Assembly (NCBI RefSeq): GCF_004010195.1
Contig: NC_057718.1
Coordinates: 7,692,785-7,725,703, forward strand
DNA length: 32,919 bases
Direction of reading: 5' to 3'
Source of the DNA: Chiloscyllium plagiosum
Taxonomy: Eukaryota
This document shows positions 2,864 to 21,912 of the stretch, piece after piece. Position numbers and translations under genes: made by a program. Position 1 is the stretch's first letter, and each line of letters starts with the position of its first letter. Under the pieces are notes generated by a model. It was not told the DNA's origin. It did no database searches and saw nothing but the letters and a program-made list of their open reading frames with translations.

Positions 2864-2888
2864 TCCAGAGTGACTCATAAATTTGGTC

Positions 2889-3090
2889 AAAAGGAGTGGC
2901 GTTGGAAAAGCACAGCTGGTCAGGCAGCATCCGAGGTGCAGGAGAGTCGACGTTTTGAGCATAAGCTCTTCAGCCGGATGTCTCAAAACGTCGACTCTCC
3001 TGCACCTCAGATGCTGCCTGACCAGCTGTGCTTTTCCAGCACCACACCTTTTGACTCTGATCTCCAGCGCCTGCAGCCCTCACTTTCTTT
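2889..3090. mobile_element. Penelope-like inverted-repeat insertion, family A, with 14-bp TSD
   Basis: Arms ~2886-2959 and 2982-3055 are near-perfect inverted repeats. TCATAAATTTGGTC is duplicated at 2875-2888 and 3091-3104. The hammerhead core is decayed. Confidence 0.75.
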
Positions 3091-3212
3091 TCATAAATTT
3101 GGTCCCTAGCTTTAGTTGCCTTTATAAAGCATCTCTTCTGTGTCTCCTCTATCAAAACCTCTGAGCATCTTCCCAAGTCCCACATCTATTTCTATCTAGA
3201 TGGGCAAGATGA

Positions 3213-3382
3213 GATACATGGGAACACAACCAGCTGCAAGTTCCTCCCCAAGCCACTCACAATCCTGAACTGGAAATATGGTGCCGTTCCCTCACTGGGT
3301 CAAAATCCTGGAATTCCCTCCTAACGACGCTATAGGTATCCCTACACAGCAGGGATTGCAGTGGCCCAAGATACCAGCAGTT
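3213..3382 (+). mobile_element. LINE 3' fragment (same family as 6637-7740)
   Basis: atgggaacacaaccagctgcaagttcc..ggtcaaaatcctggaattcc matches the reverse complement of ~6785-6895. Confidence 0.65.
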
Positions 3383-4447
3383 TGCAAAGTTCACCCCTTA
3401 ATTACAAAAGAGTGCCCAGATGGGATTCTCATTCCTGCTGGAGAGAAGACCCCCTGGTTTGTTTGATCGCTCATGGGGAGTACCACCTTCTTGCCAGACT
3501 TCCCCCGGCGGACACTGTCCCTAAACTAGAGTAGAAACTGTGTAAAAAAACTACGGGGCATTGCTCTGAACGCATCTCCCACATGAAACATCCTCAACCG
3601 GTTCTGCCAAAATGATCAGGGATTTGGCAAGTGAAGAGCCAGTCATTTCTATAAAGCTGCCAAGAGTGACAAGTTAGTATTTGCAAGCATTCTCCATCGC
3701 TCAGTAGCTGGGTGCTCATTTCCCCGTAGGTCACTGGCTAATAGTTTTCTGTGCGATCATTAGTTTCTCAAGTTAAATCCTTGAAACGGAAGTGCCTTAT
3801 CTTCCATGTAGTTTTCAGTCAAGGGGAAGTCAGAATTTTTGACAGTGTTCTGGATTCAAATATTGTCCTGCAACAGGACATGTAGAATTTAATTTGCCAC
3901 GGTGGGCACTGTGCCAAGAAGCTACCAATTCAATTATTTTTGTTAAAAGGAAGGATTTGATTACCGCATCTGGAATCAAGCCAAAGGCATCTAATTGAAT
4001 TCTTCCTCTTCAAAGTTATATTGTGTATTTTCCTTAACAAATTACATTAAGTTTACCCACAGCACAAAAGTTTAATTTACGCAGATGTTTAGTTGATAAA
4101 TGCCATTTCTAAGATTGTTTGTTAAATATATGTAAAAGCGTTTTTAGTTTTTGTTCTTGTGTTTGATAATGGCTTTAATCAGCTGATGGGGCCAGAAGGA
4201 GCATTAATGTAAAATATTTGTGACCACGCGCCCCAATCACTCATTGATACAACAGAAAGGAAGCCCTTCAGCCCATCATAATTGGCCTAGCTCTCAGCTT
4301 GAAGGATCAAATTGACCTGAAACACTGGACATTCTTTATGTTTAAGCATTGGTTTTAGAGCTACTGATGTATCCGCTTTTTCTATCACCGTTTCAAATCA
4401 TCACAATCTTACTTCACAAAAATAATATTTTTCTCGTTTTGGTGAGG

Positions 4448-4915
4448 AGACAGCCTAGTGGTGTGATGGCTGGTCTGCTAATCCTGAGATGAGAGTGTGT
4501 TGCTGGAAAAGCACAGCAGGTCAGGCAGCATCCGAAGAGCAGGAAGATCGATGTTTTGGGCCGAAGCCCTTCATCGGGAGTGAATCTAGTGTTAATCCAG
4601 AGACCCGAGTAATGGGAATGCAGGTTCGAATCCTGCCCGTGGCAGAGGGTGGAATTTGAATTCAATAAAAATATGCAATTAAGAGTCTCAATGATGACCA
4701 TGAATCCATTGTCAATTGTTGGGGGAAAGATCCATCTGGTTTACTAATGCCCTTTAGGGAAGAAATCTGCCATCCTTTCCTGGTCTGGTCTACATGTGAC
4801 TCCAGATCCACAGCAATGTGGTTGACTCTTTACTGCCCTCTGGGCAAATAGGGATGGACAATAAATGATGGGCCTGGCCAGTGATGCCCTCATCCTGTGA
4901 ATGAATAAAAAGAAA
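4448..4915 (+). mobile_element. tRNA-derived SINE sharing its 3' tail with the 6637-7740 LINE (interrupted at 4488-4580)
   Basis: B-box ggttcgaatcc, body ggaatttgaattcaataaaa..acatgtgactccaga, tail gggcaaatagggatgg..gaatgaataaaaa; further copies at 9195-10432 and 21927-22562. Confidence 0.75.
4488..4580 (-). mobile_element. Penelope-like family A terminus fragment inserted in a SINE head
   Basis: tgttgctggaaaagcacagcaggtcaggcagcatcc..gggccgaagcccttcatcgg, as in 5206-5341; decayed core. Confidence 0.65.
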
Positions 4916-5298
4916 ATTTTGCCTCGAGTTTTTCACTCAATTCAGCTAACAGCTCCTTCTCCCACCAGAGATCCTCATTCACCTTATCAAAGCCTTTCAC
5001 ATGTGTACTTCCTGTTAGCCTTCCATGTATGAAGGTGACAATTCCCAACTTGTGCAGGCCCTCCACCTAGCAACCATCTCTCATCCCAACTCGGACTCTA
5101 TTCATACTCTCTCAAAGGCATTCTTAAATTTGTTTCTCTGGGACATGGGCATTGCTGGCTTTACTGACCATCTCTATTTGCCCAGAGGGCAGTTAAAAAT
5201 CAAGCGGAGAAAGTGAGGTCTGCAGACGCTGGAGATCAAAGCTGAAACTTTATTGCTGGAACAGCACAGCAGGTCAGGCAGCATCTAGGGAACAGAAG

Positions 5299-5334
5299 AT
5301 TCGACGTTTCGGGCACATGCCCTTCTTCAGGAAT
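5299..5334 (-). ncRNA. minimal type-I hammerhead ribozyme motif (mirror copy)
   Basis: Exact reverse complement of 5354-5389. Confidence 0.72.
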
Positions 5335-5353
5335 GAGCAGACACTCTCTGCTC

Positions 5354-5389
5354 ATTCCTGAAGAAGGGCATGTGCCCGAAACGTCGAAT
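5354..5389 (+). ncRNA. minimal type-I hammerhead ribozyme motif (intact core)
   Basis: ATTC-CTGAAGA-A-GGGC atgt GCCC-GAA-ACGT-C-GAAT: helix I ATTC/GAAT, helix II GGGC/GCCC, palindromic helix III ACGT, cleavage triplet GUC ending at 5385. Confidence 0.75.
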
Positions 5390-5544
5390 CTTCTGTTCCC
5401 TAGATGCTGCCTGACCTGCTGTGCTGTTCCAGCAATAAAGTTTCAGCTAAAAATCAAGCACATTGCTCTGGATCTGGAGTCACGTGCAGGGCAGCAGATT
5501 TCCTTCCCTATAGGCCATTAGTGAAACAGATGTTTCCAACAGTA

Positions 5545-5832
5545 GGAGAGACTAGCACCTGAGGGCACAGCCTCAGACTGAAGGAACGACCCTTCAGAAC
5601 TGAGAGGAGGAGGAATTCCTTCAGCCAGAGGGTGGTGACTCTGTGGAACTCATTACTGCAGTGGAGGCCAAATCATTGAATGTCTTTAAGACAGAGATAG
5701 AAAGGTTCTTGATTGGTGAGGGATTCAATGATTATGAGGAGAAGGCAGGAGAAGCGTGTTGAAAAACATGTCAGCCATGATGAAATGGTAGAACAGACCG
5801 GATGGTCCGAATGGCCTGCTCCTGTGTCTTAT
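5545..5832 (+). mobile_element. CR1-type LINE 3' fragment
   Basis: aattccttcagccagagggtggtgactctgtggaactc..ccgaatggcctgctcctg. Confidence 0.75.
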
Positions 5833-5933
5833 CAGCCCTTAACCTTCTAAATTTGAGAAGAAGTAGGCTTAATTTGCCTTCTCAATCTCTCTTCATAACC
5901 TAATCCCTGAAAACCAGGTATTATTCTTGCAAA

Positions 5934-6058
5934 GAGAAAGTGAGGTCTGCAGATGCTGGAGATCAGAGCTGAAAATGTGTTGCTGGAAAAGCGCAGGTCA
6001 GGCAGCATCCAGGGAACAGGAGAATCGATGTTTCGGGCATAAGCCCTTCTTCAGGAAA
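5934..6058 (-). mobile_element. Penelope-like family A terminus with near-intact hammerhead core
   Basis: Colinear with 5207-5334; minus strand CTGAAGA-A-GGGC ttat GCCC-GAAACATC. Confidence 0.7.
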
Positions 6059-6074
6059 ACCGACAGGAGAAGGG

Positions 6075-6358
6075 GAACGTGGTGACCATGGCTGTTGGGA
6101 TTTTTTAAGGTGAGAGGAGAAAGATTTTAAAAAAGACATAAGGGGCAACTTTTTTTTAATACAGAGATGGTTTGTGTGAGGAATGAACTGCCAGAGGAAG
6201 TGTTGGATGGGTGTGCAGTTTCAACATTTACAAGGCATTTGGATAAGTTCAAAATTTGGAGGGATATTGGCCAGGTGGGACTAGTTTAGTTTGGGATTAT
6301 GGTTGGCATGGACTGGTTGGATTGAAGGGTCTGTTTCCGTGCTGTATAACTCTATGAC
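6075..6358 (+). mobile_element. CR1-type LINE 3' fragment
   Basis: Colinear with 405-680; ends gaagggtctgtttccgtgctgtataactctatgac. Confidence 0.8.
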
Positions 6359-6636
6359 ACTGAAGTCACCTGTTACTGTTGGTCATATATAGATATTAAA
6401 TTATGGTCAACTTTGTTTTGGCACAAAGATGATTGAGGTCAAAGAGTTGCCCATCACAGAAAGAGGTGAAGAGGATGTTCCCTCAAGCAGCAATGGGTGC
6501 ATTACCAGACAGTCTGTTTTTGGTGGCATTCATATATGGATAAATATTGACCACAGCTATTTGAAACCATAGTCTGGGATCTCTTACAACCATCCAACTG
6601 ACAATTCTCCCATAGGTACAGCACTGAGTACTGAAC

Positions 6637-7740
6637 TTTTTTTATCCATTTGAGGGATGTGAGTGCCACTGGCTGGGCCAGTGTTTATTGCCTGGCCCTA
6701 GTTGCCTCTTGAGAAGGTGGGGGGTGAATTGCATTCTTGAACTTTTGCAGTCTACCTGCTGTGGGTTGACCCACAATCTTAGAGATGGAATTCCAGGATT
6801 TTGACCCAGCAACTGGGAAGGAACGGCGATATATTTCCAAGTCAGGATGGTCTGTGATTTGGAGGGGAGCTTAAAGGTGGTGGTGTTCCCACATATCTGC
6901 TACCCTTGTCTTCCTAGATGGAAGAGGTTGTGGGTTTGGAAGGTGCTGTCTGAGGATCTTTGGTGAATTGTAGATGGCACTCACTGCTGTACTGAGCATC
7001 AGTGGTGGAGGGAGTGGATGTTTGTGGATGTGGTGCCAGTCAAGTGGGCTGCTTTGTCCTGGATGGTGTTGAGCTTCTTGAGTGTTGTTGGAGCTGCACC
7101 CATCCAGGCAAGTGGGGAGTATCCCATCACACTCCTGACTTGTGCCTTGTAGATGGTGGGACAGGCTTTAGAGAGTCAGGAGGTGAGCTACTCACCGCAG
7201 TCTTCCTAGTCTCTGACCTGCTCTTATAATCACTATGTTTATATGACACCAGGTTATAGTCCAACAGGTTTAATTGGAAGCACTAGCTTTCGGAGCGCCG
7301 CTCCTTCTAAGGTGACAACTACCTGGTGAAGGAGCGTCGCTGCGAAAGCTAGTGCTTCCAATTAAACCTGTTGGACTATAACCTGGTGTTGTGTGATTTT
7401 TAACTTTGTACACCCCAGTCCAACACCGGCATCTCCAAATTATGTTTATATGGTGAGAGCAGTTGACTTTCTGGTCAATGATAACTTCCAGGATGTTGAT
7501 AGTGAAGAATTCAGTGATAGTAACACCATTGAATGTCAAGGAGTGGTGGTTAGATTGTCTGTCTCTTTTTGGTGATGGTCATTGCCTGGCATTTGTGTGG
7601 CTTGAATGTTACTTGCCTTTTGTCAGCCTGGATATTGTCCAAATCTTATTGCATTCGGACATGGACTGCTTCAGTATCTGAGGAGTCGTGAATGGTGCTG
7701 AACATTGTGCAATCATGGGTGAACAGCCCCACTTCTGAGC
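6637..7740 (-). mobile_element. CR1/L2-group LINE 3' portion (ORF2 remnant), interrupted by 7246-7440
   Basis: Minus-strand TINILEVIIDQKVNCSHHIN resembles the ILGV-x-D-x-KL motif downstream of the RT domain. A-rich 3' end at 6637-6643; tail shared with the 4448-4915 SINE. Confidence 0.75.
7246..7440. mobile_element. Penelope-like inverted-repeat insertion, family B, with 12-bp TSD, nested in a LINE
   Basis: Arms ~7246-7313 and 7321-7389. TATGTTTATATG is duplicated at 7234-7245 and 7441-7452. Hammerhead-like core TAC-CTGGTGA-A-GGAGC gtc GCTGC-GAA-AGCT-A-GTG at 7320-7354. Confidence 0.78.
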
Positions 7741-7784
7741 TTTTTGTTCGGTTGTTAACCTTCAATTATATCCTCAAATAAAAG

Positions 7785-8493
7785 CCAAACACATGCAATG
7801 CTGGAGAAAATCAACAGGTCTGGCATCATCTGTGGAGAGAGAGAAACATGGTTCACATTTCCAATCCTAATAGGGTGGCACAGTGGCTCAATGGTTATCA
7901 CTGCTGCCTCACAGTGCCCAGGACTCAGGTTCAATTCCAGCCTCGGGCAACTGACTGTGTGAAGTTTGTACCTCCGTGTCTATGCTGGTTTACTCCCACA
8001 GTCCAAAAATAGAATCTTTGTAGAATCCCTGCAGTGTGGAAACAGGCCCTGCAGCCCAACAAACTCACACAGACCCTCTGAAGAGTAACTCATTCCCCCT
8101 ACCTTATATTTACCCCTGACTAATGCCCCTAACCTACACATCTCTGAATACTATGGGACAATTTAGCATAGCCAATTCACCTGACCTGCACGTCTTTGGA
8201 TGTGTAGGTTAAGGTGGATTGGCCCAGCTAAATTGTCCTATAGTGTTCAGGGATGTGCTGACTAAGTAGATTGGCCATGGGAAATACAGAATTACAGGGA
8301 TGGGTCTGGGTGGGATGATCGTCGGTGTGACTCAATGGGCCGAATGGCCTGCTTACACAGTATAGGGATTCTATGATTAACTAAACTTGCAAGAAGTTCT
8401 GAAGAGCCCTGGACTCGAAATGCTAACTCTGTTTCTCTCTCCAAACATGCTGCCAGACCTGCTGAGTTTATCCTGCACTTTCTGTTTTACTTT
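7785..8493. mobile_element. decayed Penelope-like inverted pair (arms ~7785-7868 and ~8395-8493) split by nested HE1-type SINEs
   Basis: Left arm (caggtctggcatcatctgtggagagagagaaaca) is complementary to right arm (tgtttctctctccaaacatgctgccagacctg). Core AGTT-CTGAAGA..CTC-GAAA-TGCT-AACT at 8395-8428. Confidence 0.55.
7872..8376 (+). mobile_element. HE1/V-SINE-type SINE containing an opposite-orientation HE1 3' half (~8010-8199)
   Basis: A-box tggctcaatgg, B-box ggttcaattcc, body tcccacagtccaaa, tail gggccgaatggcctg..ggattctatgatt. Confidence 0.85.
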
Positions 8494-9378
8494 CAATTCT
8501 ATGCTCAATGCTTGAATCTATGATTTTTTATTCCAGTGGCAAGAAACAGACTCCTGAGGCTAGCACAGCAAAAAAAAAACAAAATCAAGCAATTTCACCA
8601 AATTGTTTGTCTCAATTATAACATTTTGAGTTCGCCTTCAATTCAGGATCTGATGAAGAAAAACTAATCTTGTGTCTCTCGATGATTTTTTTTCTGTGTG
8701 ACTTGAACAAATCCGGGCTCCGAACGACATTTATCTAAAGGTTGCTGCAGAGTTTTATCACTCTCGTTTTTACTTTTGGATTCAAATAGAAACTTTCACA
8801 CTTGTGTGACGCTCTGAGAATGAAGTAACGGGTATAAACAGATGGGACACGGCAGGAAATATTAGTGAAATTAGAAAATAATTATCTGTCATTAACAGGA
8901 TAAAACCCAAATTTGCAAGAAAGCAGAGCTTCATGCTGCACAATGCACTTGTATATCACTCTAATCGGGTCTGACAGTAGTGTTAATCAGAGTCATTAAC
9001 CATTCATTACAAGCGACAGACAGTGGTGTTACAAGTCGTTGATTAGTCATTTGGATTAACAGTCTGGTGTTAACACCACTAGGGCCATACCTCCCCAATT
9101 TTCTGGACCATCACTAAGGCCAAAGCATCCTTCCGAAAATGTTGACACAACTGACCCAGTGATCCGACAGAAGAGAGAGTCCAGAAAATTGGGAAGGCGT
9201 GACTTAGTGATATTAAAGTCAGACTGCTAATGCAAAGACCCAGGTAATATTCTGGGGGCCTGGGTTTGAATCCCATCCAGAGCAGATAGTGGAGCTTGAA
9301 TCCAATCAAAGACAGGAATTAGGGGTCTAGTGAAGACTGAGAAATGATTGTCATAGGGTGAACAAAAAATATTTCTGA

Positions 9379-10293
9379 TGTAACAACTCCACAGAAACTG
9401 GTATCACGTCATCAAGTCCCCCTTTATCTACACATGCATAGTACTTGACACTGACCCAGCTCCCTCAGAGCCAGCTCTCCGAGTAAGCAGGACCTCTGAT
9501 ACTCCAGTTTATTTTTTATTAAATATTTCATTAAACAATACACGGTTTACAAATCAATTAACATTAAGTTGTACACAGAGAAGCAGCAATTTGACAAGGG
9601 AGAGGATCACCAAAGCCAGGCCCCAAACTCTACAGTTCAACCAGTTCTCATGGAAATGAGGAAATACCTCAAATCCCAGTTTCAATCATTCCAAAGCAGT
9701 AGCAATGACATTTTTTACATATAAGACAGTCCAATTACATTAAAAAAGTGCAGACAATACAGACCCCCAGAAACCCAGCAAGCCACCCGTCCCTCACTTT
9801 TGTTTTTTTTTTGTTTATTTTTTCTTTTTTTATTTACCCCCCACCCCCCCAACACTACCGCCTAACTACGATAATACTTATTTTTCCCCAGCAACCATGG
9901 TGTGTGTGTGCAGTTGTGAGACACAGTGAAAGACACAAGGTGCACGAATCTTTAATCAGTTTCCACCACCAAGAAGAAAGGAAACACCCGAGTGGCCAGT
10001 GATAAGCAGAGCCCTTCACATCAAAGGGCAGTGCTGTGTGATCAAAACAGTGATGGGGAGGGGAGGGATTAAATCAAAATAGAGTTGGAGGGGGAAATAA
10101 TGCACTCCACTCCCTGCGGCGCCCACCTCTCCCTGAACAACTCCAGGGTGTTGGTGGAGACCGCGTGCTCCTTCTCCGACATTCTGTTTATATCTATCAT
10201 CCAGGGCTTCCTGATTGGACCAGATTAACAGCCCCAATCAGGGAACTCATATTCTATGAGGTCCATCTGGCTGACCTCGTTCCAATCATTACA
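9379..10293. mobile_element. solo LTR (Gypsy-like, TGTAA...TTACA) split by a Tx1-like LINE tail
   Basis: Terminal inverted TGTAA at 9379 and TTACA at 10289-10293; decayed 4-bp TSD ctga/ttgg; pieces 9379-9512 and 10178-10293. Confidence 0.6.
9513..10177 (-). mobile_element. Tx1/L1-like LINE 3' end (ORF2 C-terminus plus ~550-bp 3'UTR)
   Basis: Minus strand 10176-10069 reads EKEHAVSTNTLELFRERWAPQGVECIISPSNSILI*, with an F-x-x-R-W terminal motif. Ends in aataaaaaataaa; flanked by a decayed duplication ending gtttat. Confidence 0.65.
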
Positions 10294-10499
10294 TTGGAAT
10301 CACAGATGTCCTTTAGGGAAGGAATCCAGCCTACATGTGGCAAACTCTGACCTTCCTTCTGGGCAATTAGGGTCAAGCAATAAATGCTGGCCTAACCAGT
10401 GACCTCCTCATCCTATGAATGATTCAATTAAAAGATTTACTGGAGCTTCCACTCTCTGGAGAGCTGCAGTCAGGATGAATTTGATCAAAATCAGTCAAG

Positions 10500-10640
10500 T
10501 CACCACGGTCTCAGAGGACGAGAGTGCTGCTCTTTCATTACAGAGACAGAGACAACTGTTGGTGAGGTTAACCTGGGGGTGACCATGTCTCAGGTAAGGG
10601 GCAAGGTTGAGAAGGTGGGACTTCCATGGGTATTTCAGCT
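10500..10640 (-). mobile_element. fragment of a third tRNA-derived SINE family
   Basis: Similar to 17170-17300 and to the reverse complement of 15540-15625. Confidence 0.55.
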
Positions 10641-10689
10641 GGGGTGGGACACAAGTCAGGAATGAAAGAGACACAGATTTAATGAGGGG

Positions 10690-11020
10690 TGAGCACATTG
10701 ATACTTATCCAGCTGTCACAGGTTGGGCGTAGATCGGATGTTTCCCCCCGGCTGGTGGGTCTTGAACCAGGGATCATTGTCCCAGAATAAGGGGCAAGTC
10801 ATTTCAGACTGAGCTGGGGAGGAACCCTTTCACTTGGATTGTGGTGAATCTTTGGAAATCTTCACCCCAGGCTGCTACGGAAACTCAGTGTTTGAACATG
10901 CTCAAGTCAGTAAGTTTCTGGGGGTCCAGGGCTCCAAGAGGCTATGACACTGAGGTAGAGGATCCGCCACTGTCTAATTGAACAGCAGAGCAGGCTGAAT
11001 AGCCTCCTTTTGTTCATATG
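10690..11020 (+). mobile_element. decayed CR1-type LINE 3' fragment
   Basis: ggatgtttccccc..gtggtgaatctttggaa..ggctgaatagcctcc. Confidence 0.65.
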
Positions 11021-11189
11021 GAATATGATTGGCAAAGAAACTGGAAACGATGTGAGGAAAGCTCTTTCTTAGACAGTTGTGATCCGGAATAAGAAAATCA
11101 GAAAAGGTTAAAGAAACTCAGCATGGAGAGAGAGAAACAGAGTTAATGTTTCAAATCTGCAGACCTTTCAAAACTCAAAGTTTTAATTA

Positions 11190-11838: not shown

Positions 11839-11846
11839 GTTAGGTC

Positions 11847-11932
11847 ATTCCTGATAAAGGACTTATGCACAAAACATCAATTCTCCTGCTCCTCGAATGC
11901 TACCTGACCTGCTGTGCTTTCCCAACAACATC
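11847..11932 (+). mobile_element. decayed Penelope-like family A fragment
   Basis: attcctgataaaggacttatgcacaaaacatcaattctcctgctcc..cctgacctgctgtgc. Confidence 0.55.
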
Positions 11933-12496: not shown

Positions 12497-12797
12497 CGCG
12501 GTGGCTCAGTGGTTAGCACTACTGCCTCACAGCACGAGGGTCCCAGATTCGATTCTAGCCTCGGCGACTGCCTGTGTGGAGTTTGCACATTCTCCCCGTG
12601 TCTGCGTGGGTTTGCTCCGGTTTCCTCCCATAGTCCAAAGTTGTGCAGGTCAGGTGAATTGGCCATGCTAACTTGCCCATAGTGTTAGATGCATCAGTCA
12701 GAGGGAAATGGGTCTGGGTGGGTTACTCTTCGGAGGGTCAATGTGGACTGGTTGGGCTGAAGGGCCTGTTTCCACACTGTAGGGAATCTAATCTAAT
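12497..12797 (+). mobile_element. near full-length HE1/V-SINE-type SINE
   Basis: tRNA-like head ggtggctcagtggttagcac..ttcgattc, V-domain-like ctgtgtggagtttgcacattctccccgtgtctgcgtggg, CR1-shared tail gaagggcctgtttccacactgta and (AATCT)n. Confidence 0.9.
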
Positions 12798-12974
12798 TAA
12801 ACAAATTGTCGGCTGAGTGAAATACCGTCGAGGTCATGATGGGATTTTTAGTCAGACCGTTAGCTGAGGTCCCTGGTGAAATAACCACTGTGCTTACCAA
12901 CTCTTGCCATTAATCAGGAATACTGCACTTCATTTCACCGTTAGTGTTGTGGAGGACAGAGTTAAATGAGGACA

Positions 12975-13203
12975 AGGGCAGCAGGTACATGGGGACGTCA
13001 CCCCCTGCAGGTTCCCCTCATCCTGATTTGGAAATGTATCGCCGTTCCTTCACTGTCACTGGGTTACAATCCTGCCACCCCTGCACCCAGGTGGACTGCC
13101 GTGGTACAAGAGGCAGCTTAGCCTCATCTTCTCGAGGGGCAATTAGGGATGGGCAGTCGGTTCTGGCCCAGCCAGTGCCCCCTACATCCTAGGAGTTAAT
13201 AAA
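12975..13203 (+). mobile_element. LINE 3' tail fragment (6637-7740 family)
   Basis: ttggaaatgtatcgccgttccttcactgtcactggg..gggcaattagggatgggca. Confidence 0.65.
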
Positions 13204-13372
13204 GACTTGCATTTGTATAGCGCTTTCCTCAGCCATGCCCTGTCCCAAAGCGAAGATAATGGAGTGCGGTTTTTCTTGTAATGTCAGAAATGCTGCAACC
13301 GATTTGTGCACAGCAAGTGCCTACAAACAGCTAATGCCACCCTGAGTAGAGAGTCTGTTAATTTTGATGCTG

Positions 13373-13530
13373 GGAGAAAGTGAGGACTGCAGATGCTGGA
13401 GATCAGAGCTGAAAATGTGTTGCTGGAAAAGAGCAGCAGGTCAGGCAGCATCCAAGGAGGAGGAGAATCGACGTTTCGGGCAGGAGCCCTTCTTCAGGAA
13501 TTCCTGTGCTTTTCTAGCAACCACACTCTT
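13373..13530 (-). mobile_element. Penelope-like family A terminus with truncated inverted arm
   Basis: Colinear with 5206-5334, followed by a short inverted piece (ctgtgcttttctagcaaccacactct). Confidence 0.7.
13466..13501 (-). ncRNA. minimal hammerhead motif (intact core) in a family A terminus
   Basis: Minus strand reads ATTC-CTGAAGA-A-GGGC tcct GCCC-GAA-ACGT-C-GATT; helix I has one mismatch. Confidence 0.65.
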
Positions 13531-13552
13531 TGTTCTGGGTATTAACCCTTCT

Positions 13553-13685
13553 TGAGTCCTGAGGAAGGGTTACACCTGCAACATTGACTTCTCCATCTGC
13601 TGATGCTGCCTGGCCTTGCTGTGTTCTCCCAGCCTCCTGCCTGTCTACTTTGGATTCCAGCATCTGCCATTTTTTTTGTTGTCTG
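13553..13685 (+). mobile_element. Penelope-like terminus, another subfamily
   Basis: AGTC-CTGAGGA-AGGgttacaCCT-GCAA-CATT-GACT followed by gatgctgcctggccttgctg..ttccagcatctgc. Confidence 0.55.
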
Positions 13686-13809
13686 TAACTAATTTTACAC
13701 TTGGGGTAACTCCCCAAATTTCTTCAAAGTGGTGTCTTGGGATGTTTGACAACTTGAACCTCCATCTGAAGCCTCATCAGGGCAATGATCTTCGAGTTCC
13801 TACATGGTG

Positions 13810-13950
13810 GGCAGGCTAGGTGGCTTGGCCATGGGAAATGCCAGAATAGGGTAGGTGGGTGGGTTTGGGTGAGTTCCTCTTCAGAGGGTCGGTGTGGACT
13901 TGATGGGCCGAGTGGCCTGCTTCCATGCTGTAGGGATGCTACGATTCTAT
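13810..13950 (+). mobile_element. HE1-type SINE 3' half
   Basis: ttggccatgggaaatgc..ctcttcagagggtcggtgtggacttgatgggccga..attctatg. Confidence 0.75.
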
Positions 13951-14185
13951 GGGAGAAACAGCCTTGATTTTCATGCTGCTCAGTCCTGAGGTCTCTGGGT
14001 TGTAACTTGGAGGTTAATGTGTTACCCACTGAGCGACAGCAAAGGGAAATGTAGCCATCTGGGTTTTACACCTGGGATTGTTGGGGGTGGTACTGTCGCA
14101 ATGAATGATTTGTACCAGCATCATCTCCTTCAATACCACATTCATGTTCCACAGCTTTTCCTGGGGGTCTAATCATGAATTAATT

Positions 14186-14550
14186 TAGGATATCTGGTCT
14201 GCATGAAGGAGTTGGACCGAAGGGTCTGTTTCCATGCTGTACATGTCAATGACTCTAGTCATCTGTTCCTCTGAGCTTGCTAGTGCTCTGCCATTCATTG
14301 AGAACGCCCTTGTCTTGTTATTTCTTCCAAAGTGCATCACCTCACAGTTTTCAGGGTTAAATTCCGTGTGCCACTCATCTGCCCATCTGATCAATCCGTT
14401 TAGATCATCATGTAACCTAACACCCTCTTCCTCACTACCAACCTCCCAGCCAATCCCTGTATTATGCACAAACATACTTACCATCCCTCCCACGTTCTCA
14501 TTGTCATCATTTATGTATGTCACAAATATTAAGAGATCCCATAGTGATCT
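14186..14550. mobile_element. CR1 tail (+, 14186-14256) abutting a CR1 RT fragment (-, ~14258-14550)
   Basis: Minus strand YINDDNENVGGMVSMFVHNT..DLNGLIRWADEWHTEFNPENCEVMHFGRNN is a decayed FADD region. Confidence 0.8.
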
Positions 14551-14848
14551 CTGCAGTGGATTAACGGAGTGATCTAATTGAGCTGTTTAAAGCAATTACA
14601 GGATTGGACTGAGGAAATGGAGAGACTCTTTGTCCTCAAATGCTGAAGGTCTGAACCATGTGTTCATTTCTTCACTCAAAATATTGTTTCGAACTCCCTC
14701 TCAGCAAAAGCTGCTGAGCCTGTGTCCCCGGGGTTTGGGGGGCGTGGCGATCAATTAACAATTTCAACACTCAGGTTCATAGACTTTGCCGTGCAAGGGT
14801 TTTCATGTTGAGGGATCCAAGATGGAGAAGTTGGGGGCTGAAGATGTT

Positions 14849-14943
14849 AGAGATCAGAGTTGAAGAGTGTGGCGCTGGAAAAGGTCAGGCAGCATCCGAG
14901 GAGCAGGAAAGTCGATGTTTTGGGCAAACGTTCATCAGGAATT
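14849..14943 (-). mobile_element. decayed Penelope-like family A fragment
   Basis: gagatcagagttgaagagtgtggcgctggaaaaggtcaggcagcatccgagg..ttcatcaggaat. Confidence 0.55.
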
Positions 14944-15057
14944 GATCAGCCCTTCATCCAAACTGGCTGTGGATGTAGCGAAGATTCAGATCAATTGTTA
15001 TCTGAGTGAATGATGGAATGGGCTCAAGGTATATCTTACAATCTTAACCCATCCACT

Positions 15058-15460
15058 CCATGCAAGGCACTAGTCAGACCACAAGTGGAATTCTGTAAAC
15101 AGCTTTGGGCCCTTTATCTAATGAAAGATATACTGGTCTTGGAGGTGGTCCCGATGAAGGTTAACTAGAGTGACACCAAGTATGGAAGCACAGAGGAACA
15201 AATTACTGCAGACGCTGGATTCTATGCTGAAAACAACAAATGGTGGCGATCACAGCGGGTCAGACAGAATCCATCGCGAGGGAGAGAGAGAGCAAGCTAA
15301 CATTTAGAGTCTAGATGACTTTTCAGCAGAGCTCTGATGAAGAGTTATCTGGACTCGAAACACCAATTATGGAAGGTCTGTCTTAGCAGGAGAGGGTGAG
15401 TAGATTAGGCCTGCACTCACTGGAGTTTAAAAGAATGAGAGGAGACCTTATTGAAATATA
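15058..15460 (+). mobile_element. CR1-type LINE fragment interrupted by 15189-15359
   Basis: aaggcactagtcagaccaca..agaatgagaggagaccttattgaaa. Confidence 0.7.
15189..15359. mobile_element. Penelope-like insertion, family C, with short inverted hammerhead-bearing end and 16-bp TSD, nested in a CR1
   Basis: ACACCAAGTATGGAAG (15173-15188) vs ACACCAATTATGGAAG (15360-15375), one mismatch. GCT-CTGATGA-A-GAGT..ACTC-GAAA at 15331-15360 is mirrored at ~15296-15332. Confidence 0.7.
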
Positions 15461-15462
15461 AT

Positions 15463-15625
15463 GGGGTCAGTTAGCTCAGTTGGTTGGACAGCTGGTTTGT
15501 AATGCAGCGTATGACCGATAGTGCAGGTACATTCCTACCAAGTCTCCTTCTCAACCTCTCCCCTTGCCTGAGGCATGGTGATGCTCAAGTTAAACCACCA
15601 CCAGTTATCTCTCTGACGAGAGAGG
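15463..15625 (+). mobile_element. tRNA-derived SINE 5' part (third family)
   Basis: A-box tagctcagttggt; body ctcaacctctccccttgcctgagg..gttaaaccaccaccag. Confidence 0.6.
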
Positions 15626-15626
15626 T

Positions 15627-16280
15627 AACCTTCTTCGCTGTCCACTACACCTCCAATTTTGGTGTCATCTGCAAACTAACTAACTATACCTCTTATATTC
15701 ACATCCAATCATTTATATAAATGACAAAAAGTAGTGGACCCAGCACCAATTCTTGTGCCACTCCACTGGTCACAGGCCTCCAGTCTGAAAAACAACCCTC
15801 CACCACTACCCTCTGTCTTCTATCTTTGAGCCAGTTCTGTATCCAAATGGCTAGTTCTCCCTGTATTCCGTGAGATCTAACCTTGCTAACCAGTCTCCCA
15901 TGGGGAACCTTGTTGAATGCCTTACTGAAGTCCATATAGATCATGTCCATAACTCTGCCCACATCAATCTTCTTTATAGTTCTTCAAAAAACTCAATCAA
16001 GTTTGTGAGACATGATTTCCCATGCACAAAGTCACATTGACTGTCCCTAATCAGTCCTTGCCGTTCCAAATACATGTACATCCTGTCCCTCAGGATTCCC
16101 TCCAACAACTTGCCCACCACCGAGGTCAAGCTCACTAGTCCTAACTTCCCTAACTTGTCCTTACCACCCTTCTTAAACAGTGGCACCAGTTAGCCAACCT
16201 CCAGTGTTCTGGCACCTCACCTGACTATCAATGATACAAATATCTCGGCAAGGAGCCCAGCAATCATTTCCCTAGCTTCT
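15627..16280 (-). mobile_element. CR1-type LINE reverse-transcriptase fragment (frameshifted)
   Basis: PLFKKG..VSLTSVVGKLLE..GKSCLTNLIEFFE; YMDFSKAFNKVPH..WLKDRRQRV..TSGVAQELVLGPLLFVIYIND. Confidence 0.92.
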
Positions 16281-16462
16281 AACAGATGTGGAGGAATTTC
16301 TTCTCTCAGAGAGGAGGGAATCTGTGGAATTTATTTTACAGGGCTGTTGAAGCTGGGTCATTAAGTATATCCAAGGCTGAGACAGACAGAATTTTAGTCA
16401 GGAGGGGATCAATGGTTATGGGGAAAAGGCAGGATAGTGGAGTTGAGGATTATCAAATCAGC

Positions 16463-16536
16463 CATGATCTCATCAAATAGCAACCATGACGTCATCGAAT
16501 AGCAACTGTGATGTCATCAAATAGCAGTCGTGATGT
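16463..16536 (+). repeat. 22-bp tandem repeat, ~3.4 copies
   Basis: catgatctcatcaaatagcaac / catgacgtcatcgaatagcaac / tgtgatgtcatcaaatagcagt / cgtgatgt. Confidence 0.85.
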
Positions 16537-16624
16537 GGAGGGGCCGATGTTGGACTGGGGTGGGCAAAGTTAAAAATCACTCAAAAGTACTTCCAAATAA
16601 ACCTGGTGTGTGATTTTCAACATT
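16533..16624. mobile_element. internally deleted family B inverted fragment
   Basis: tgttggactggggtgggcaaagttaaaaatcac is the reverse complement of the 7393-7426 motif, followed by aaataaacctggtgtgtgatttt. Confidence 0.55.
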
Positions 16625-17169
16625 GAATAGCAGAGCAGCCTTGATGGGCTAAATGGCCTACTTCTGCTGCTATGATCTTGCTATATCCTTCATTCCACCG
16701 CTACCTTCTGGCATAGACACTGCCTTTCCACAGGCACAGTAGGATTTGGAGGCGGGGACTGTAATGAGACTTTCAAATTGAACAATTGGGGTTTCTGAGT
16801 GCTGATTGTGGTGCAGGAGACGGAACTGCGTTCAGGCATGTTGTTGAGTTGTTGCCTGAAGGGTTTCTGTGTTTACTTTTGACCTCACTTAAATGCTTCC
16901 TTTGTTATGTAGTTCCTCAGATTCCAAGCAGATCTCATCAAACATTTCCTTTGTTGTGGAATTCCTTGAAATCTGCTGTTTCATCTTTGATGATTTCCCC
17001 AGTCTATGTGCATATATTAGAAGCTGCAAACATTGAGACTAAAGCTCATGAATACTCAGGATGTATCCAGCAGCTCTGGTGAGGGAAGCTCATTTTCCAG
17101 GTGTCAATTTACCACCCATACTTAGCAAACATTGGGCTGGCGTGGTGAGCATTTCCATGATTTGTTGTG

Positions 17170-17392
17170 GTGTCACCATTGTCTTACCAGACCATAAGGG
17201 GCTGCTCTCTTATCAGAGAGAGGCGATTGAAGGTCATTTAACCCTGGGGGTATACCAGGCTTCAGGTGAGGAAAGAGGTTGAGAAGGAGAGTCCTTCATG
17301 GTAACCTCAAACCGGTGATGGGAATTGAACCCACGCTGTTGGCATCACACTGCTCTGCAAACCAACAATCTAGCCAACTGAGCTCAACCAAT
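17170..17392 (-). mobile_element. tRNA-derived SINE (third family)
   Basis: Minus strand gagctcagttggcta..gggttcaattccc carries A/B boxes; matches 15463-15625. Confidence 0.65.
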
Positions 17393-17441
17393 TCCTTCCA
17401 TGATTTGAAAGCAAGTGTTTGTTGCGCTGGGGGATTCAATT

Positions 17442-17540
17442 AAAAAACACTCAACACCAGGCTATAGACCAACAGATGGTGTTGTGTGATTGTTAACTTT
17501 GTCTACCCCAGTCCAACACCTGCACCTCCACATCATGGCT
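17442..17540. mobile_element. internally deleted family B inverted fragment
   Basis: caacaccaggctatagaccaacag / tggtgttgtgtgattgttaactttgtctaccccagtccaacacc, as in 7246-7440. Confidence 0.6.
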
Positions 17541-17594
17541 AGTGGATTCAGACAACAAAGATCACAGGGCTCTGTGGGAGAGAGAAGGGATTGT

Positions 17595-18210
17595 GGAATG
17601 CTAGAGGAATGGAGTTTAAAAACAGGGAGATTATTCTACAGCTGTATGGGGTGTTAGTGAGGCCATACCTGGGAGTACAGCTACAGTTTTGATCTCCTTA
17701 CTTGAGAAAGGATGTCCTGGCACTGGTGGGAGTGCAAAGGAGGTTCATTAGGTGATTCTGGAGTTGAGGGGTTGGCTTATGAGGGCAGGCTGAATAGACT
17801 GGGACTATACTCATTGGAATGAGGTGGGGGGATCTTATAGAAACATAAAATTATGAAGTGAATAGTAAAGATAAAGGCAGGGAGGTTGTTTCCATCAGTG
17901 GGTGAAACTAGAACTAGGGGGCTTAGCCTCAAAATCAGGGGGAGCAGGATTTAGGACCGATTTGAGGAGGAACTCCTTCACCCAGAGGGTTGTGAATCTG
18001 TGGAATTCCCTGCCCAGTGAAGCAGCTGAGGCTACCTTCATTGAATGTTTTTAAGGTAGTGACAGATTTCTAAACAGTAAAGGAAGTAAGGGATACAGTG
18101 AGAGGGTGGGTAATTGGAGCTGAGGCCATGAAAAGGTCAGCCATGATCTTATTGAATGGCAGAGCAGGCTCGAGGGGCCAGATGATCTACTCCTGCTCTG
18201 AGTGCCTATA
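17595..18210 (+). mobile_element. CR1-type LINE 3' fragment
   Basis: gtgaggccatacctgggagtac..ccttcacccagagggttgtgaatctgtggaattccctgccc..tactcctgct. Confidence 0.85.
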
Positions 18211-18211
18211 T

Positions 18212-18455
18212 TAGAACATTACAGTGCAGTACAGGCCCTTCGGCCCTCGATGTTGCGCCGCCCTGTCATACTAATCTGAAGCCCATCCCACCTACACTAT
18301 TCCATGTACGTCCATACGCCTGCCCAATGACGACTTAAATGCACTTAAACTTGGCGAATCTACTACCGTGGCAGGCAAAGAAACTACCCCTGACATCTGT
18401 CTTATACCTATCTCCCCTCACTTTAAAGTTGTGTCCCCTCGTGTTTGCCATCCCC
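18212..18455 (-). mobile_element. CR1-type LINE 3' fragment
   Basis: acaggcccttcggccc is the reverse complement of the gggccgaagggcctgt tail. Confidence 0.75.
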
Positions 18456-19684
18456 ATGTTCTTTTGTAAAGGCAAGACAGAGGTTTACACTATCAAAAAA
18501 TGATCATCGAATGATGGAGCTGGCTGGATGGGTCAAGTGATCTCCTCAAACTCATGTTTTGTCTGATCATCTTGCTTTGAAAGTGATAGTGAAGGTCAAT
18601 CCAATTACAGTGGAGCTCTTGTTGACCTCAAGGCAAAGACAGAGTGTCCTAAGCTGTGGGATCAAAGGACATGAGGCACCAAGGGAGACCAAGCCTGAAA
18701 TAAGTGCAGCATGATTTAAGATTAGAGAATATTCTGTGGCTGTAAGGAAGAGAAACATAAAGCTTTTCTCAGTATCCTGCTCCAGTCCTACATTGCTCTG
18801 GGATCTCTACGATGACTCAAGTTCTGATCGCTTGACCATCGCTTTCATCTACTCCACTGACAACTGTGTCTTTAGCAGCTGAGGTCCAAAGTTCTGGGAC
18901 TGCACTATTTTCTGCCCCCAACGCCACTTTCAAATCCTAAGACCCTTGAATGAGCTGCTGCCTGTTGTACCTTCACCAGAAACTCTGCTATTGCTATGGC
19001 TTTCTTTTCTCAAACGAAGGTTAATTACAAATTGTCTTGTGTATGACATTTTATTTAGCGTTTATCTGGGAATCTGTGGTTTAATTATTCATCATACATA
19101 AAGAACATAGGTGCCCGTCTGTCTATAAATATTTGTGTTCAGCCTCATAAAGTAAGTTATGTTTGTAAAGCATGTTCTTACAGGCTCTGCGTTTAATCCT
19201 TTCCAGGGAAACCTGATGCCATGATAAGGGAGAATTGGAATTAGCACACAGAAGTGGAACTTGGCAGAAAATTAGGTAATGGATGATTCTAATGTGAGAC
19301 TTGTTCGTGCCTTATGAACTCGACACAATGAGGAGTGTTAACATTGGTGTAGTTGGGAGGATTCTCTGCTGCATGCTTAGATGCAAGATGTAACCTTGAG
19401 TCATGTCACACTCTCAGTCCCAGTATCAATGCAGTGCCTTCATCCAAGCAAGTGTGGTGATTTCATAATGCCCAGGAACTATCCTGTCATCTCTTCTGAC
19501 TGAGGTGTCAATCTGATGTTAATTGATTCTGTGTTGTTACTGTGTGACCATTGTGAATTTGCTTCAACAGCCCCCAAACTAAGTCTTCACGATATTAACA
19601 GGAAAAGACAGCATAGATAAAAGATAAACTATTTCCAGTGGTTGGAGATAGGGGCATTGTGTGAGAATTAGGAGCTGGACCATT

Positions 19685-20184
19685 CAAAGTACAAAGAACA
19701 AAGAAAATTTACAACTTTCGGCCCTCCAAGCCTGAGCCAATCCAAATCTACTGTCTAAACCTGTGGCCCAATTCCTAAGCATCTGTATCCCTCTGCTCCC
19801 CATGCATCTGTCCAGCCACATCTTAAATGAATCTGTCGTACCTGCCTCTTCCACCTCTGCTGGCAATGTGTTCCAGACACCCACCACCGTCTCTGTAAAG
19901 TACTTGCCGCGTGTATCCCCCTTAAACTTTTCACCTCTCACCTTGAAAGCGTGACCTCTCGTTATTGAATCCTTCACCCTGGGGATAAAGCTTGTCTCTA
20001 TCCACCCTGCCCATACCCTTCATGATTTTGTAAACCTCAATCAGGTCCCCCCTCAATCTCCTTTTGTCTAATGAAAACCTAACCTACTCAACCTCTCTTC
20101 ATAGCTAGCACCTTCCATCACCCTTGTAAACCTTCCCTGCACCCTCTCCAAAGCGTCCACATCCTGTTGGTAACGTGGCGACCA
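19685..20184 (-). mobile_element. CR1-type LINE 3' fragment inserted into a + strand CR1 fragment (~19620-20405)
   Basis: TRGHAFKVRGEKFKGDTRGKYFTETVVGVWNTLPAEVEEAG on the minus strand; host continues as DVRKYFSTQRVGKVWN on the plus strand. Confidence 0.85.
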
Positions 20185-20495
20185 GGGAAGATGTTAGGAA
20201 GTACTTCAGCACTCAAAGGGTGGGAAAGGTTTGGAACTGTCGTCTGCAGACAGCAGTAGGTGCTGGATCAGTTGTTAATTTTAAAGCTGAGATGGATGGA
20301 TACATTTTTATTAAACAAAGATATGAAAGGGATATGGACCAATGGCAGGTATATGGACTTAGGCCACACATCAACATTGATCTCATTGAATGGTACAATG
20401 GGCTCATAGAGTCCTACAGCATGGAAACAGATCCTTTGTCCCAATCCACTACACGGCGCTACCTCGTGCTCCCACAAGGAGGTTGAACAGTTCAT

Positions 20496-20570
20496 CTGAC
20501 CTGCTGTGCTGTTCCAGCAATAAAGTTTCAACTTTGATCTCCAGCATCTGCAGACCTCACTTTCTCCTCC
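20496..20570 (+). mobile_element. Penelope-like family A 3' fragment
   Basis: Nearly the exact reverse complement of 5206-5277. Confidence 0.65.
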
Positions 20571-20674
20571 CAATCCATTCACACTCAAGGGCCTGAATGG
20601 ACTCTCAAATTTGCCATTCATCCATCCAAATAAACCAGGGGAGGGTTTGTGCTTAAACGGATGTCTGCCCTGGG

Positions 20675-20910
20675 ACCGAAGGGACAACTTTTTCACGCAG
20701 AGGGTGGTACGTGTATGGAATGAGCTGCCAGAGGAAGTGGTGGAGGCTGGAAGAATTACAACATTTAAAAGACAGCTGGATGGGTATATGAATAGGAAGG
20801 GACATGGGCCAAGTGCTGGCCAATGGGAGTAGTTTAGGTTAGTAGATCTGGTCATCATGAACGAGTTGGACCGAAGGGTCTGTTTCAGTGCTGTACACCG
20901 CTATGACTCT
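20675..20910 (+). mobile_element. CR1-type LINE 3' end
   Basis: NFFTQRVVRVWNELPEEVVEAG and the ccgaagggtctgtttc..ctatgactct tail. Confidence 0.85.
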
Positions 20911-21181
20911 CGAGGTGAAGTGTAATCGATCCAATCATTGGTTTTTGCTCAGTAACATGGAAATTCAGAGATTACAATAAGAGGTGCCAAACCCAGTCAT
21001 GAACTAATGAAGCCTATTTATCTACTCCTCTGCTTGTACAGATCTGGAGGATGCTATAAAACTAAAGGCCTATTCAAAGGCTTTTGTCTTGCATTCCTCA
21101 AAAGTACAGAACTTCAAACTGAACAGCAATTTACACTGCTTGGGAAAATGGTGCTGGTTGGTTTGACAGCCGACTCTGGTT

Positions 21182-21388
21182 CATAGAATCCCTACAGTGT
21201 GGAAACAGGCCATTTGGCCCGTTGAGCCCATCCCTGTAACCCTGCATTTCCCATCGCCAATCCACCTAACCTGTACATCTTTGGACCATGGAAGGAAATC
21301 AGAGCACCTGCCCAGACTCAGGGAGAACGTGCAAACTCCATACAGACAGTCACCCGCGGGTGGAATCAAACCAGGGTCCCTGCTGCTC
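21182..21388 (-). mobile_element. internally deleted HE1-type SINE
   Basis: Reverse complement matches the 12530-12790 motifs. Confidence 0.75.
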
Positions 21389-21497
21389 ACTCTGGGTTTG
21401 GTTACAGTTTTGTTATGGTGGAACATGTGCCAAGGAACTGTTGTCATCCATCCTTGGTTTATTCTTGTTTGTAAAAGTCACAATGTTAAGACTGGAT

Positions 21498-21655
21498 GAC
21501 ACAGGAGTAGAATTAGGCCGTTCAGCCCATCGAGTCTGTTCTGCCATTCAGTGAGATCGTGGCTGATCTGACAATCCTCATCTCCACTTTTCTGCCTTTT
21601 CTCCATAACCCTTGATTCCCTTCCTGATTAGAAATCTGGGTGAGCCTCAGCCTTG
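21498..21655 (-). mobile_element. CR1-type LINE 3' tail
   Basis: caggagtag..aggccgttcagcccatcgagtctgttctgccattca. Confidence 0.7.
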
Positions 21656-21783
21656 CAATGGAATACTGGTTTATTTAGCTTGATAAAATATCACAGAGGT
21701 GGTTCTGGACGTTTGTTAGACTGGCAGTTGTTTAAACTGGTGTCCCCCTCAGGGGTCATTCTGGATACATCATTATATTGTTT

Positions 21784-21912
21784 GAAATCAGAAGCAAAAG
21801 ACAGAAAATGCTGGAGAAACACAGCAGGTCTAGCAGTAACTGTGGAGAGAGAAACAGAGTTAGCATTTCAAATCTAGTATGGCCCTTCTTCAGAGCTGAA
21901 CTTTCTTCAGAA
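21784..21912 (-). mobile_element. decayed Penelope-like terminus (related to 7785-8493)
   Basis: acagaaaatgctggagaaacacagcaggtctagcag..gagagagaaacagagtt..cccttcttcagagc. Confidence 0.55.

Follow-up and report, generated by a model that had tools for sequence, protein, structure and literature searches.

Endonuclease-bearing (EN+) Penelope-like elements (PLEs) insert with an inverted, 5'-truncated copy, a 30-40 bp tail at one end and a target-site duplication (TSD) (PMC8557442; PMC3846280). How PLEs make such inverted, tailed insertions has been called undefined (PMC8557442). TATA and initiator motifs are present in a pseudo-long terminal repeat (pLTR), and self-priming has been proposed (PMC3846280). 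In vitro, the Poseidon element of Anolis carolinensis has both target strands nicked and extended, with its tail lying between two internal start sites of the reverse transcriptase (RT); ribozyme mutants insert normally, and that work goes as far as first-strand priming (PMC11167929). Minimal hammerheads occur in the pLTRs of metazoan PLEs, mostly as single motifs of truncated PLEs, with opposite-strand duals 100-700 bp apart (PMC4209133). Animal non-LTR retrozymes are non-coding, carry a type I hammerhead, come from PLE pLTRs and occur in one chondrichthyan genome (bioRxiv 10.64898/2026.07.22.740005). Here we describe a stretch of 32,919 nucleotides from the shark Chiloscyllium plagiosum (GCF_004010195.1, contig NC_057718.1, positions 7,692,785 to 7,725,703, forward strand), which we call the window, and its short inverted insertions, which a first-pass annotation had described as hammerhead-bearing mini-elements. 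We found that these elements are very probably PLE stubs that are remade at each insertion.

Arm positions are counted in the hammerhead-sense direction, with the C of CUGANGA as 0. The four TSD-flanked inverted insertions from three families that had been annotated are all present; the A/B type occurs twice, and families C and D account for the other two.

2875-3104, both strands: pair 1, older A/B type; TSD 2875-2888 / 3091-3104; no intact core; tail-less arm 2889-2978 on the minus strand, reaching -2; tailed arm 2986-3090 on the plus strand, starting at +21
5194-5459, both strands: pair 2, young A3 type; TSD 5194-5205 / 5448-5459; tailed arm 5206-5341 on the minus strand (tail 5206-5239); tail-less arm about 5340-5447 on the plus strand
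5299-5334, minus strand: minimal type I hammerhead motif in the tailed arm of pair 2; core C at 5330; descriptor match
5354-5389, plus strand: minimal type I hammerhead motif in the tail-less arm of pair 2; core C at 5358; descriptor match
7234-7452, both strands: pair 3, family C; TSD 7234-7245 / 7441-7452; mutated core; short arm 7246-7307 on the minus strand; tailed arm 7315-7440 on the plus strand, starting at -8 with G before
15173-15375, both strands: pair 4, family D; TSD of 16 nt with one mismatch (15173-15188 / 15360-15375, by reading), 8 nt of it exact; tailed arm 15189-15335 on the minus strand; very short arm 15328-15359 on the plus strand, ending within the hammerhead

The inverted repeat of pair 1 (2886-2959/2982-3055) is 95% complementary over 74 nt, and its 14-nt TSD is exact. 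In pair 2 the repeat (5240-5341/5347-5448) is 100% complementary over 102 nt, with an exact 12-nt TSD and 34 additional bases at one end. Two variants are common to both arms of pair 2 and occur in none of the other 88 arms (90 compared), which would fit a common template. The predicted cut in its tail-less arm presumably falls after 5385, by what we take to be the hammerhead consensus. Pair 3 has a 62-nt repeat (7246-7307/7328-7389, 97%) and an exact 12-nt TSD, and pair 4 has a 33-nt repeat (15303-15335/15328-15360, 85%). TSDs of 12-16 bp had been annotated; this is right for the first three, at 14, 12 and 12 nt exact, and the fourth is either 8 nt exact or 16 nt with one mismatch. The inversion centre had been placed at or just 5' of the core. 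This is not always so: usually one arm ends at about -4 and the other anywhere from -6 to +90.

These insertions resemble those of EN+ PLEs in their head-to-head copy, their tail at one end (34-38 bases), their TSD, their palindromes at the junctions and their TATA- and initiator-like motifs. Unlike the published insertions, they are 90-250 bases in total, lack an open reading frame (ORF) and have an inner end that is fixed to a few bases; their TSDs are 11-17 nt as against 8-10 in the rotifer examples, and the polarity of their arms disfavours the self-priming proposed there. They share with the hammerheads of PMC4209133 the order CUGANGA, bulge, stem II, GAAA and a short palindromic stem III, as well as a short stem I; the accessible part of that paper makes no mention of sharks. 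As in Poseidon, two RT starts bound the tail, about 110-120 bases past the hammerhead, and cleavage is dispensable there; the clade probably differs, as judged from the linker motif, and neither inverted products nor a fixed 5' end are described in the accessible Poseidon text. Non-LTR retrozymes are defined by head-to-tail tandem repeats; the copies here are scattered singles or head-to-head pairs, and they extend little beyond the core on its 5' side. Thus the inverted copy, the tail and the TSD of PLEs are known, and what is added here is the fixed inner end, the extra G and the polarity of the arms.

To trace the parent we used loci L001-L030, sampled around one degenerate core pattern; L031-L050 form an unselected sample, which was analysed together with the window. 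About 10 of the 30 core-pattern loci extend upstream into shared sequence, and in four of the 30 (L007, L017, L022 and L027) a broken coding sequence is contiguous with the terminus. By eye, the upstream peptides of these four contain what we take to be a Cys-rich CxxC linker and the C-terminal end of a GIY-YIG domain, and presumed RT pieces also occur in L027 and L001. The top Atlas match of the L007 piece was a 'GIY-YIG domain-containing protein' (score 0.95). The RT piece matched Atlas eukaryotic clusters, one set of which has RVT_1 in 14% of its members, and a first look with the RT peptide gave 24,706 candidates genome-wide. Pfam returned RVT_1 in one of ten parent fragments, at an E value of 0.031, which does not pass the cut-off, and nothing in the other nine. 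Because GIY-YIG and RT coding sequence lies upstream, we conclude that the arms are the end module of PLEs. The first-pass annotation had offered stereotyped short Penelope integrations as one reading and had suggested extending the flanks in search of autonomous partners. The first is borne out by the four loci with contiguous parental coding sequence, and the second reached parental RT/GIY-YIG sequence, in broken form. It had also recognised no Penelope coding sequence in the window, and a tblastn search with six parent peptides agreed, matching only the peptide that spans the hammerhead terminus. Runs of N lie inside long Penelope copies (L001, L005, L022 and L051), so that a long open frame is often a gap, and full-length copies are under-represented. 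A Cys-rich linker motif before GIY-YIG points to Neptune or Nematis (PMC8557442). By eye, a CxxC stretch precedes GIY-YIG in L007 and L027, as expected of Neptune and common to Nematis, and the parent is probably an endonuclease-bearing PLE of the Neptune clade.

The inner end of the stubs is nearly fixed. In the unselected sample and the window, 30 of 63 arms reach +2; 25 of these end within -8 to +2, none between -9 and -50 and five beyond -50, with BLAST arm ends uncertain by a few bases. Exact matches genome-wide number 31,274 for -4 to +24 (29 nt), 11,051 for -13 to +20 (34 nt) and 12,338 for -37 to -4 (34 nt); upstream of the core there is a step and then a plateau. Loose ends exactly at -4 were found in 152 reads of the RNA run and 186 times in contigs. 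Long copies have C at -5. Copies that leave the parent at this position have G in 65 cases, A in 23 and T in 12, with about 28 G expected (hand tally of the first 100 of 2,674 non-C matches, limited to A or C at -6; dropping G and T at -6 removed the commonest pair junctions). Half of the arms that begin at -4 (9 of 18) are likewise preceded by G, and at the X8 joints at -4 a C follows on the plus strand. In family C, by eye, short copies (window 7315, L012, L032 and L047) have G before -8 and long copies have C. An extra G is a trace of reverse transcription of a capped 5' end. In each family the inner end point falls at a CA or TA that we take to be initiator-like. Long family C copies (L013, L016, L045 and L050) carry TATAAAT 30-32 bases upstream of the inner end, and a long D copy carries CATAAAT about 30 bases upstream.

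The first-pass annotation had tied the inversion points to the ribozyme. Positionally the tie holds, with ends concentrated 4 bases 5' of the core, but it does not extend to the cut site. A small sample had hinted that some 5' ends fall around the cut site (+28 to +33), and the genome-wide test gave no sharp peak: 508 ends lie at the predicted cut site, +28, compared with 377 at +32 and 376 at +24. After a rough correction for flanking letters, with patterns of unequal length, these become about 1,400, about 1,200 and about 700, against about 6,900 at -4. Stalling of RT at the base of stem I is disfavoured as the cause of the fixed end, because family C ends 5 bases past stem I and because stalling does not predict the extra G.

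Outer ends fall into two groups, one at +120 to +127 and one at about +80 to +98, which are 34-38 bases apart. Where TSDs map them, 16 of 17 ends of the first group lie at +120 to +127 and all 19 of the second at +80 to +91. The gap between the two outer ends is the PLE tail. Past the tail, 340 copies enter the same 8 letters, when a rough estimate from about 60,000 tail ends predicts about 1; since these overshoots enter shared sequence, the template extends beyond the tail and priming is internal. Loose ends at +125 were found in 514 RNA reads and 227 times in contigs. The inner priming site is AT-rich in all families, and microhomology special to it was not seen (mean 1.6 bases versus 1.3 at the tail end).

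We compared 27 distinct A/B pairs found in the window and at L001-L050; the set is nonrandom, 12 pairs coming from loci selected for an intact core. Counts of pairs and singles exclude duplicate loci and matches ending before +60; singles below 80% identity or 40 bases were also excluded. TSDs of 11-17 nt, sought with at most one mismatch, are present in 23 of the 27 pairs. One tailed and one tail-less arm make up 26 of the 27 pairs, compared with 48% expected from singles (26 tailed, 18 tail-less; p = 9e-8). Of the two arms, the tail-less one extends further 5' in 20 pairs and the tailed one in 4, with 2 ties (p = 0.0015), and +2 is reached by 20 of 26 tail-less but only 7 of 26 tailed arms. 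In three pairs with almost non-overlapping arms, the tailed arm starts at +81, +82 and +90. In the 19 of 27 pairs whose arms overlap enough to be compared, the two arms differ by 5.0% on average, against 3.1% from the nearest other arm, and in 1,221 columns they share 11 non-consensus variants and have 53 private ones. Copies of the TSD differ at 6 of 337 positions. Homogenisation of the arms by gene conversion was ruled out by the contrast between 53/1,221 in arms and 6/337 in TSDs.

The junctions between arms are mostly different from one another. Close head-to-head cores of one subfamily pattern number 7,898 genome-wide, and the first 50 of these matches (49 loci, hand tally) hold 36 different spacers. 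A 5-base spacer recurs nine times, a 9-base one five times and two others twice each. The commonest spacer is what results when an arm ending at -4 plus a G is joined via one or two shared bases. Because the same 5-base spacing is found in different subfamilies and in family B, this junction arises repeatedly. About 12 of the 50 junctions hold short re-copies of adjoining element sequence; short templated re-copies at junctions resemble polymerase-theta joining.

Some further observations concern the arms outside the window. RNA reads span inverted junctions at L015:1522-1534 (14 reads, 12 starts, one joint), so some palindromes are transcribed. In X12, A>G and T>C were among the commonest differences; without matched DNA these are no sign of editing. 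Hammerhead arms are inserted at or into arms of other families at L013:1295-1659, L016:1339-1613, L017:1407-1594 and L050:5578-5759, which suggests nested targeting, and the last of these is also an adjacent head-to-tail pair. At L031, near-identical decayed arms with the same flanks (284-394 and 1193-1304, about 910 bases apart) are a local duplication that was counted as two.

In LINE-1 twin priming, a single RNA is primed at two places from two nicks in the target, which leaves a 5' inversion and a TSD. LINE-1 arms do not overlap and the internal site varies; the stubs differ in having a fixed second site and arms that mostly overlap, forming a palindrome. Based on the ends, polarity and junctions described above, we propose a model of twin priming on one PLE RNA, to which we assign a probability of roughly 0.6. 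The first part of the model concerns the template. The parent RNA would start, capped, at the initiator-like A 4 bases upstream of the core (8 in family C), and reverse transcription would begin internally about 90 or 125 bases further on, at the 5'-most copy of the sites. The resulting cDNA of 90-130 bases would run off the RNA start and gain an extra base opposite the cap. The second part concerns priming. The endonuclease would nick both target strands about 12-15 bases apart. The first nick would prime at the inner site, and its cDNA would extend freely to the RNA start; the second would prime the tail site on the same RNA, displace the first cDNA and halt at a variable point. The final part of the model involves joining. 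The cDNA 3' ends would be joined head to head by microhomology, often with short templated inserts, to give a TSD-flanked inverted pair that has a tail at one end; a single surviving priming would give a single arm with or without a tail. We propose that the hammerhead marks the site of inversion because it comes first in the transcript, and that cleavage does not set the breakpoint. Use of the inner site before the tail site on one RNA, and displacement of the first cDNA, would explain the fixed pairing of arms, their polarity and the three tailed arms that stop near the inner site. The sequences themselves show parentage, end positions, polarity and junction diversity; we infer the RNA start and its cap, the order of priming, the displacement and the joining pathway.

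Which of the other routes could give the same products? Template fold-back, which the first-pass annotation had put forward, is not supported as the main route, as the tail-less arm reaches further 5' in 20 pairs and the tailed arm in 4. A folded-back tailed cDNA cannot yield an arm that reaches further 5', and a folded-back tail-less cDNA cannot yield a tail, so two primings are needed. The self-priming version, in which the 3' end of the cDNA folds back and is copied and the endonuclease cuts the AT-rich inner site to leave the tail on one side (PMC3846280, PMC8557442), appears improbable to us. It predicts pairs of a tailed and a tail-less arm, four pairs show its polarity, palindromic and microhomology junctions are common, and the inner site is AT-rich in all families. 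However, it needs the tailed arm to reach at least equally far 5', and 20 of the 24 untied pairs show the opposite; the tail-less arm extends more than 150 bases further 5' twice (L022, L048:7309), and tail-less singles have TSDs of their own (L003, L012, L026 and L030). The in vitro tail, moreover, is bounded by two RT start sites (PMC11167929). Two primings could instead take place on two RNAs held by a protein dimer whose subunits use the tail and the inner site respectively. The Poseidon protein is a predicted dimer that extends both strands (PMC11167929), both arms reach the RNA start in several pairs, and 7 of 26 tailed arms extend at least to +2. Even so, we consider two RNAs rather unlikely, because the idea requires a built-in asymmetry for 26 of 27 mixed pairs and leaves the shortened tailed arm, and the three tailed arms that end near the inner site, unexplained; in an informal inspection by eye there was also no clear pair with arms from two subfamilies.

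Another possibility is that the single arm (-4 to +125) is a non-autonomous family like a short interspersed nuclear element (SINE), with an internal promoter, that is re-copied in trans. This is compatible with twin priming and differs from our model in the template. It would account for the fixed 5' end with its extra G and for the two private variants in both arms of pair 2; internal priming would exclude flanks from new copies, and the Penelope element of D. virilis has an internal promoter (PMC2377424). Against it, the stub subfamilies examined that have long copies all match long, parent-linked copies, the upstream TATA box of family C is lost in stubs, and the 340 overshoots enter one common downstream sequence. 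We judge it unlikely. Finally, the whole inverted unit might propagate itself, as a miniature inverted-repeat transposable element (MITE) or retrozyme does, or ribozyme cleavage might fix the breakpoint. Recurrent spacers (9 and 5 among the first 50 matches) would fit such an origin, and the first-pass annotation had raised it. The evidence runs heavily the other way: the same 50 matches hold 36 different spacers, and the 5-base spacing recurs in family B and across subfamilies whose loops differ. The features of a MITE are absent, as the outer ends are unequal, the TSDs are 11-17 nt long and the matches listed hold at least 36 spacers. The head-to-tail tandem monomers of a retrozyme are absent among the window copies, which are dispersed singles or head-to-head pairs. 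There is no sharp peak at the cut site, and the arms of a pair are no more alike than copies are (5.0% versus 3.1%). We therefore regard this last explanation as very improbable.

Several observations weigh against twin priming on one RNA as we have drawn it. The tailed arm reaches further 5' in four pairs, and the L013 pair has two tails; the short arms of window pairs 3 and 4 end at +66 and about +25, and by eye family C pairs have no clear polarity. Four of the 27 pairs gave no TSD, and L050:5675 is doubtful. The 11 shared and 53 private variants do not tell one RNA from two RNAs of one locus. The extra G could be target-derived, selected by pairing or a non-templated addition; AG outnumbers CG by 55 to 10 at -6/-5, which suggests that the G often belongs to flanking DNA. 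Inner ends may be trimmed during joining, and families A and B have TTATCT at about -32 and no TATA box. RNA reads (polyA single-cell reads only) showed no site where many molecules begin or end, 93% continuing into unlike flanks on both strands. Given the unequal length of the patterns, an excess of up to about twofold at the +28 cut site may exist. Last, no full-length element was obtained in which an upstream pLTR leads into an ORF, L051 being mostly assembly gap.

The stubs are abundant. About one per 2 kb had been claimed for the window, and this is accurate: BLAST with 11 family queries found 16 clusters, or one per 2.1 kb, and none in the reversed-sequence control, so the other fragments that had been named are all real. 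Outside the window, four 50 kb blocks on four other contigs (190,885 bases) hold 61 clusters (one per 3.1 kb), 19 of them with both strands, and the reversed control holds none; stubs occupy 7,784 of these bases, or about 4%. A rough extrapolation from the four blocks gives about 1.1 million stubs in the genome. Exact matches to one degenerate core pattern number 90,060 in 3.56 Gb (44,946 + 45,114; control 0), which upholds, as a motif count, the suggestion of a very large genomic pool of hammerheads. Published counts are about 4,000 for coelacanth and about 9,000 for Xenopus (PMC4209133), obtained with different search methods.

Hammerheads able to satisfy a strict descriptor of the minimal motif (core CUGANGA / GAAA-N-UH with stems I and II) number four in the window (5330-, 5358+, 6054-, 13497-) and eight in the 190,885 bases, with none in 13 Markov controls, ten of which were for the window. 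Thus, of the four insertions that had been called hammerhead-bearing, the one at 5206-5447 passes and the other three fail. The core of the 7246 element is mutated to CUGGUGA, the 2889 element lacks an intact core, and the 15189 element has a short arm that ends before the cut site. Across families A/B, C and D/F the stems vary in sequence and keep their pairing, as judged by eye, since the MAFFT alignment placed family C one column off. An Rfam scan of the window matched no hammerhead model. Its four matches at E<=1, three to microRNA (miRNA) hairpin models and a weak one to tRNA, were all under their gathering scores, and the miRNA matches are hairpin artefacts. Predicted folds formed stem II only and not the full motif, and three of four arms folded no better than shuffles.

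The remaining hammerhead-family arms of the window are as follows.

4486-4583, minus strand: single tail-less arm, A/B type, decayed; -6 to +91
5934-6057, minus strand: single tailed arm, A2; -3 to +123; descriptor match
7782-8495, both strands: two family F arms, head to head; 7782-7866 minus, 8395-8495 plus, the plus arm starting at -4; about 530 bases of other repeats between; no TSD established
11845-11930, plus strand: single tail-less arm, A/B type, decayed; starts at -6
13370-13525, minus strand: tailed arm with short inverted piece; 13370-13501, -4 to +124, descriptor match; piece about 13502-13525 on the plus strand, by reading
13551-13677, plus strand: decayed arm of a further family (E)
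14823-14942, minus strand: single tailed arm, A/B type, decayed; starts at -4
16533-16620, both strands: family C tail piece with short inverted piece; 16533-16584 on the minus strand; plus-strand piece by reading
17420-17537, both strands: small family C pair without hammerhead; 17420-17475 minus, 17477-17537 plus
20496-20568, plus strand: tailed fragment, A3, without hammerhead; +53 to +125
21781-21900, minus strand: family F arm; starts just upstream of the core

Other repeats are present in the window. A frequent one, which by eye looks like a tRNA-derived SINE, lies at 7875-8380, 12500-12800, 21180-21390, 21960-22280 and 29200-29780, often with inverted neighbours; one copy separates the family F arms at 7782 and 8395. 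A weak tRNA match on the minus strand (17310-17392, 24 bits, below the gathering score), with a similar stretch by eye at 15465-15540, is probably a SINE head. Two inverted, decayed repeat copies at 360-963 (220-base arms at 72%) recur at 6100-6360, 14180-14270 and 20680-20910. The inverted repeat of 22527-22688 and 23177-23325, with arms of about 160 bases (85%; 90-94% in parts) and about 490 bases between them, is unrelated to the hammerhead families. At 31891-32104 there is a tandem duplication of about 107 bases, 99% identical.

In the literature we found no description of a fixed 5' end, an extra G or twin priming in PLEs, or of these shark elements; Repbase, Dfam and subscription journals lay outside this search and may hold the families. 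Thousands of young, TSD-bounded events have ends that can be tabulated, and fold-back, dimer and single-RNA models therefore give different predictions that can be counted. It is possible, and we hold this broader claim with some doubt, that the main product of PLE retrotransposition here is a 90-130 base run-off of the capped RNA leader, and that the inverted-plus-tail structure typical of the class arises when strand displacement accompanies two primings of one RNA, each at a fixed site. For annotation, the stubs resemble MITEs or miRNA hairpins, and the count of hammerhead core motifs is about ten times the published vertebrate counts compared here. If stubs or promoter-keeping pLTR remnants are transcribed, about 1 million loci would form a SINE-like, hammerhead-headed population, and the head-to-head pairs would supply long double-stranded RNA in host transcripts.

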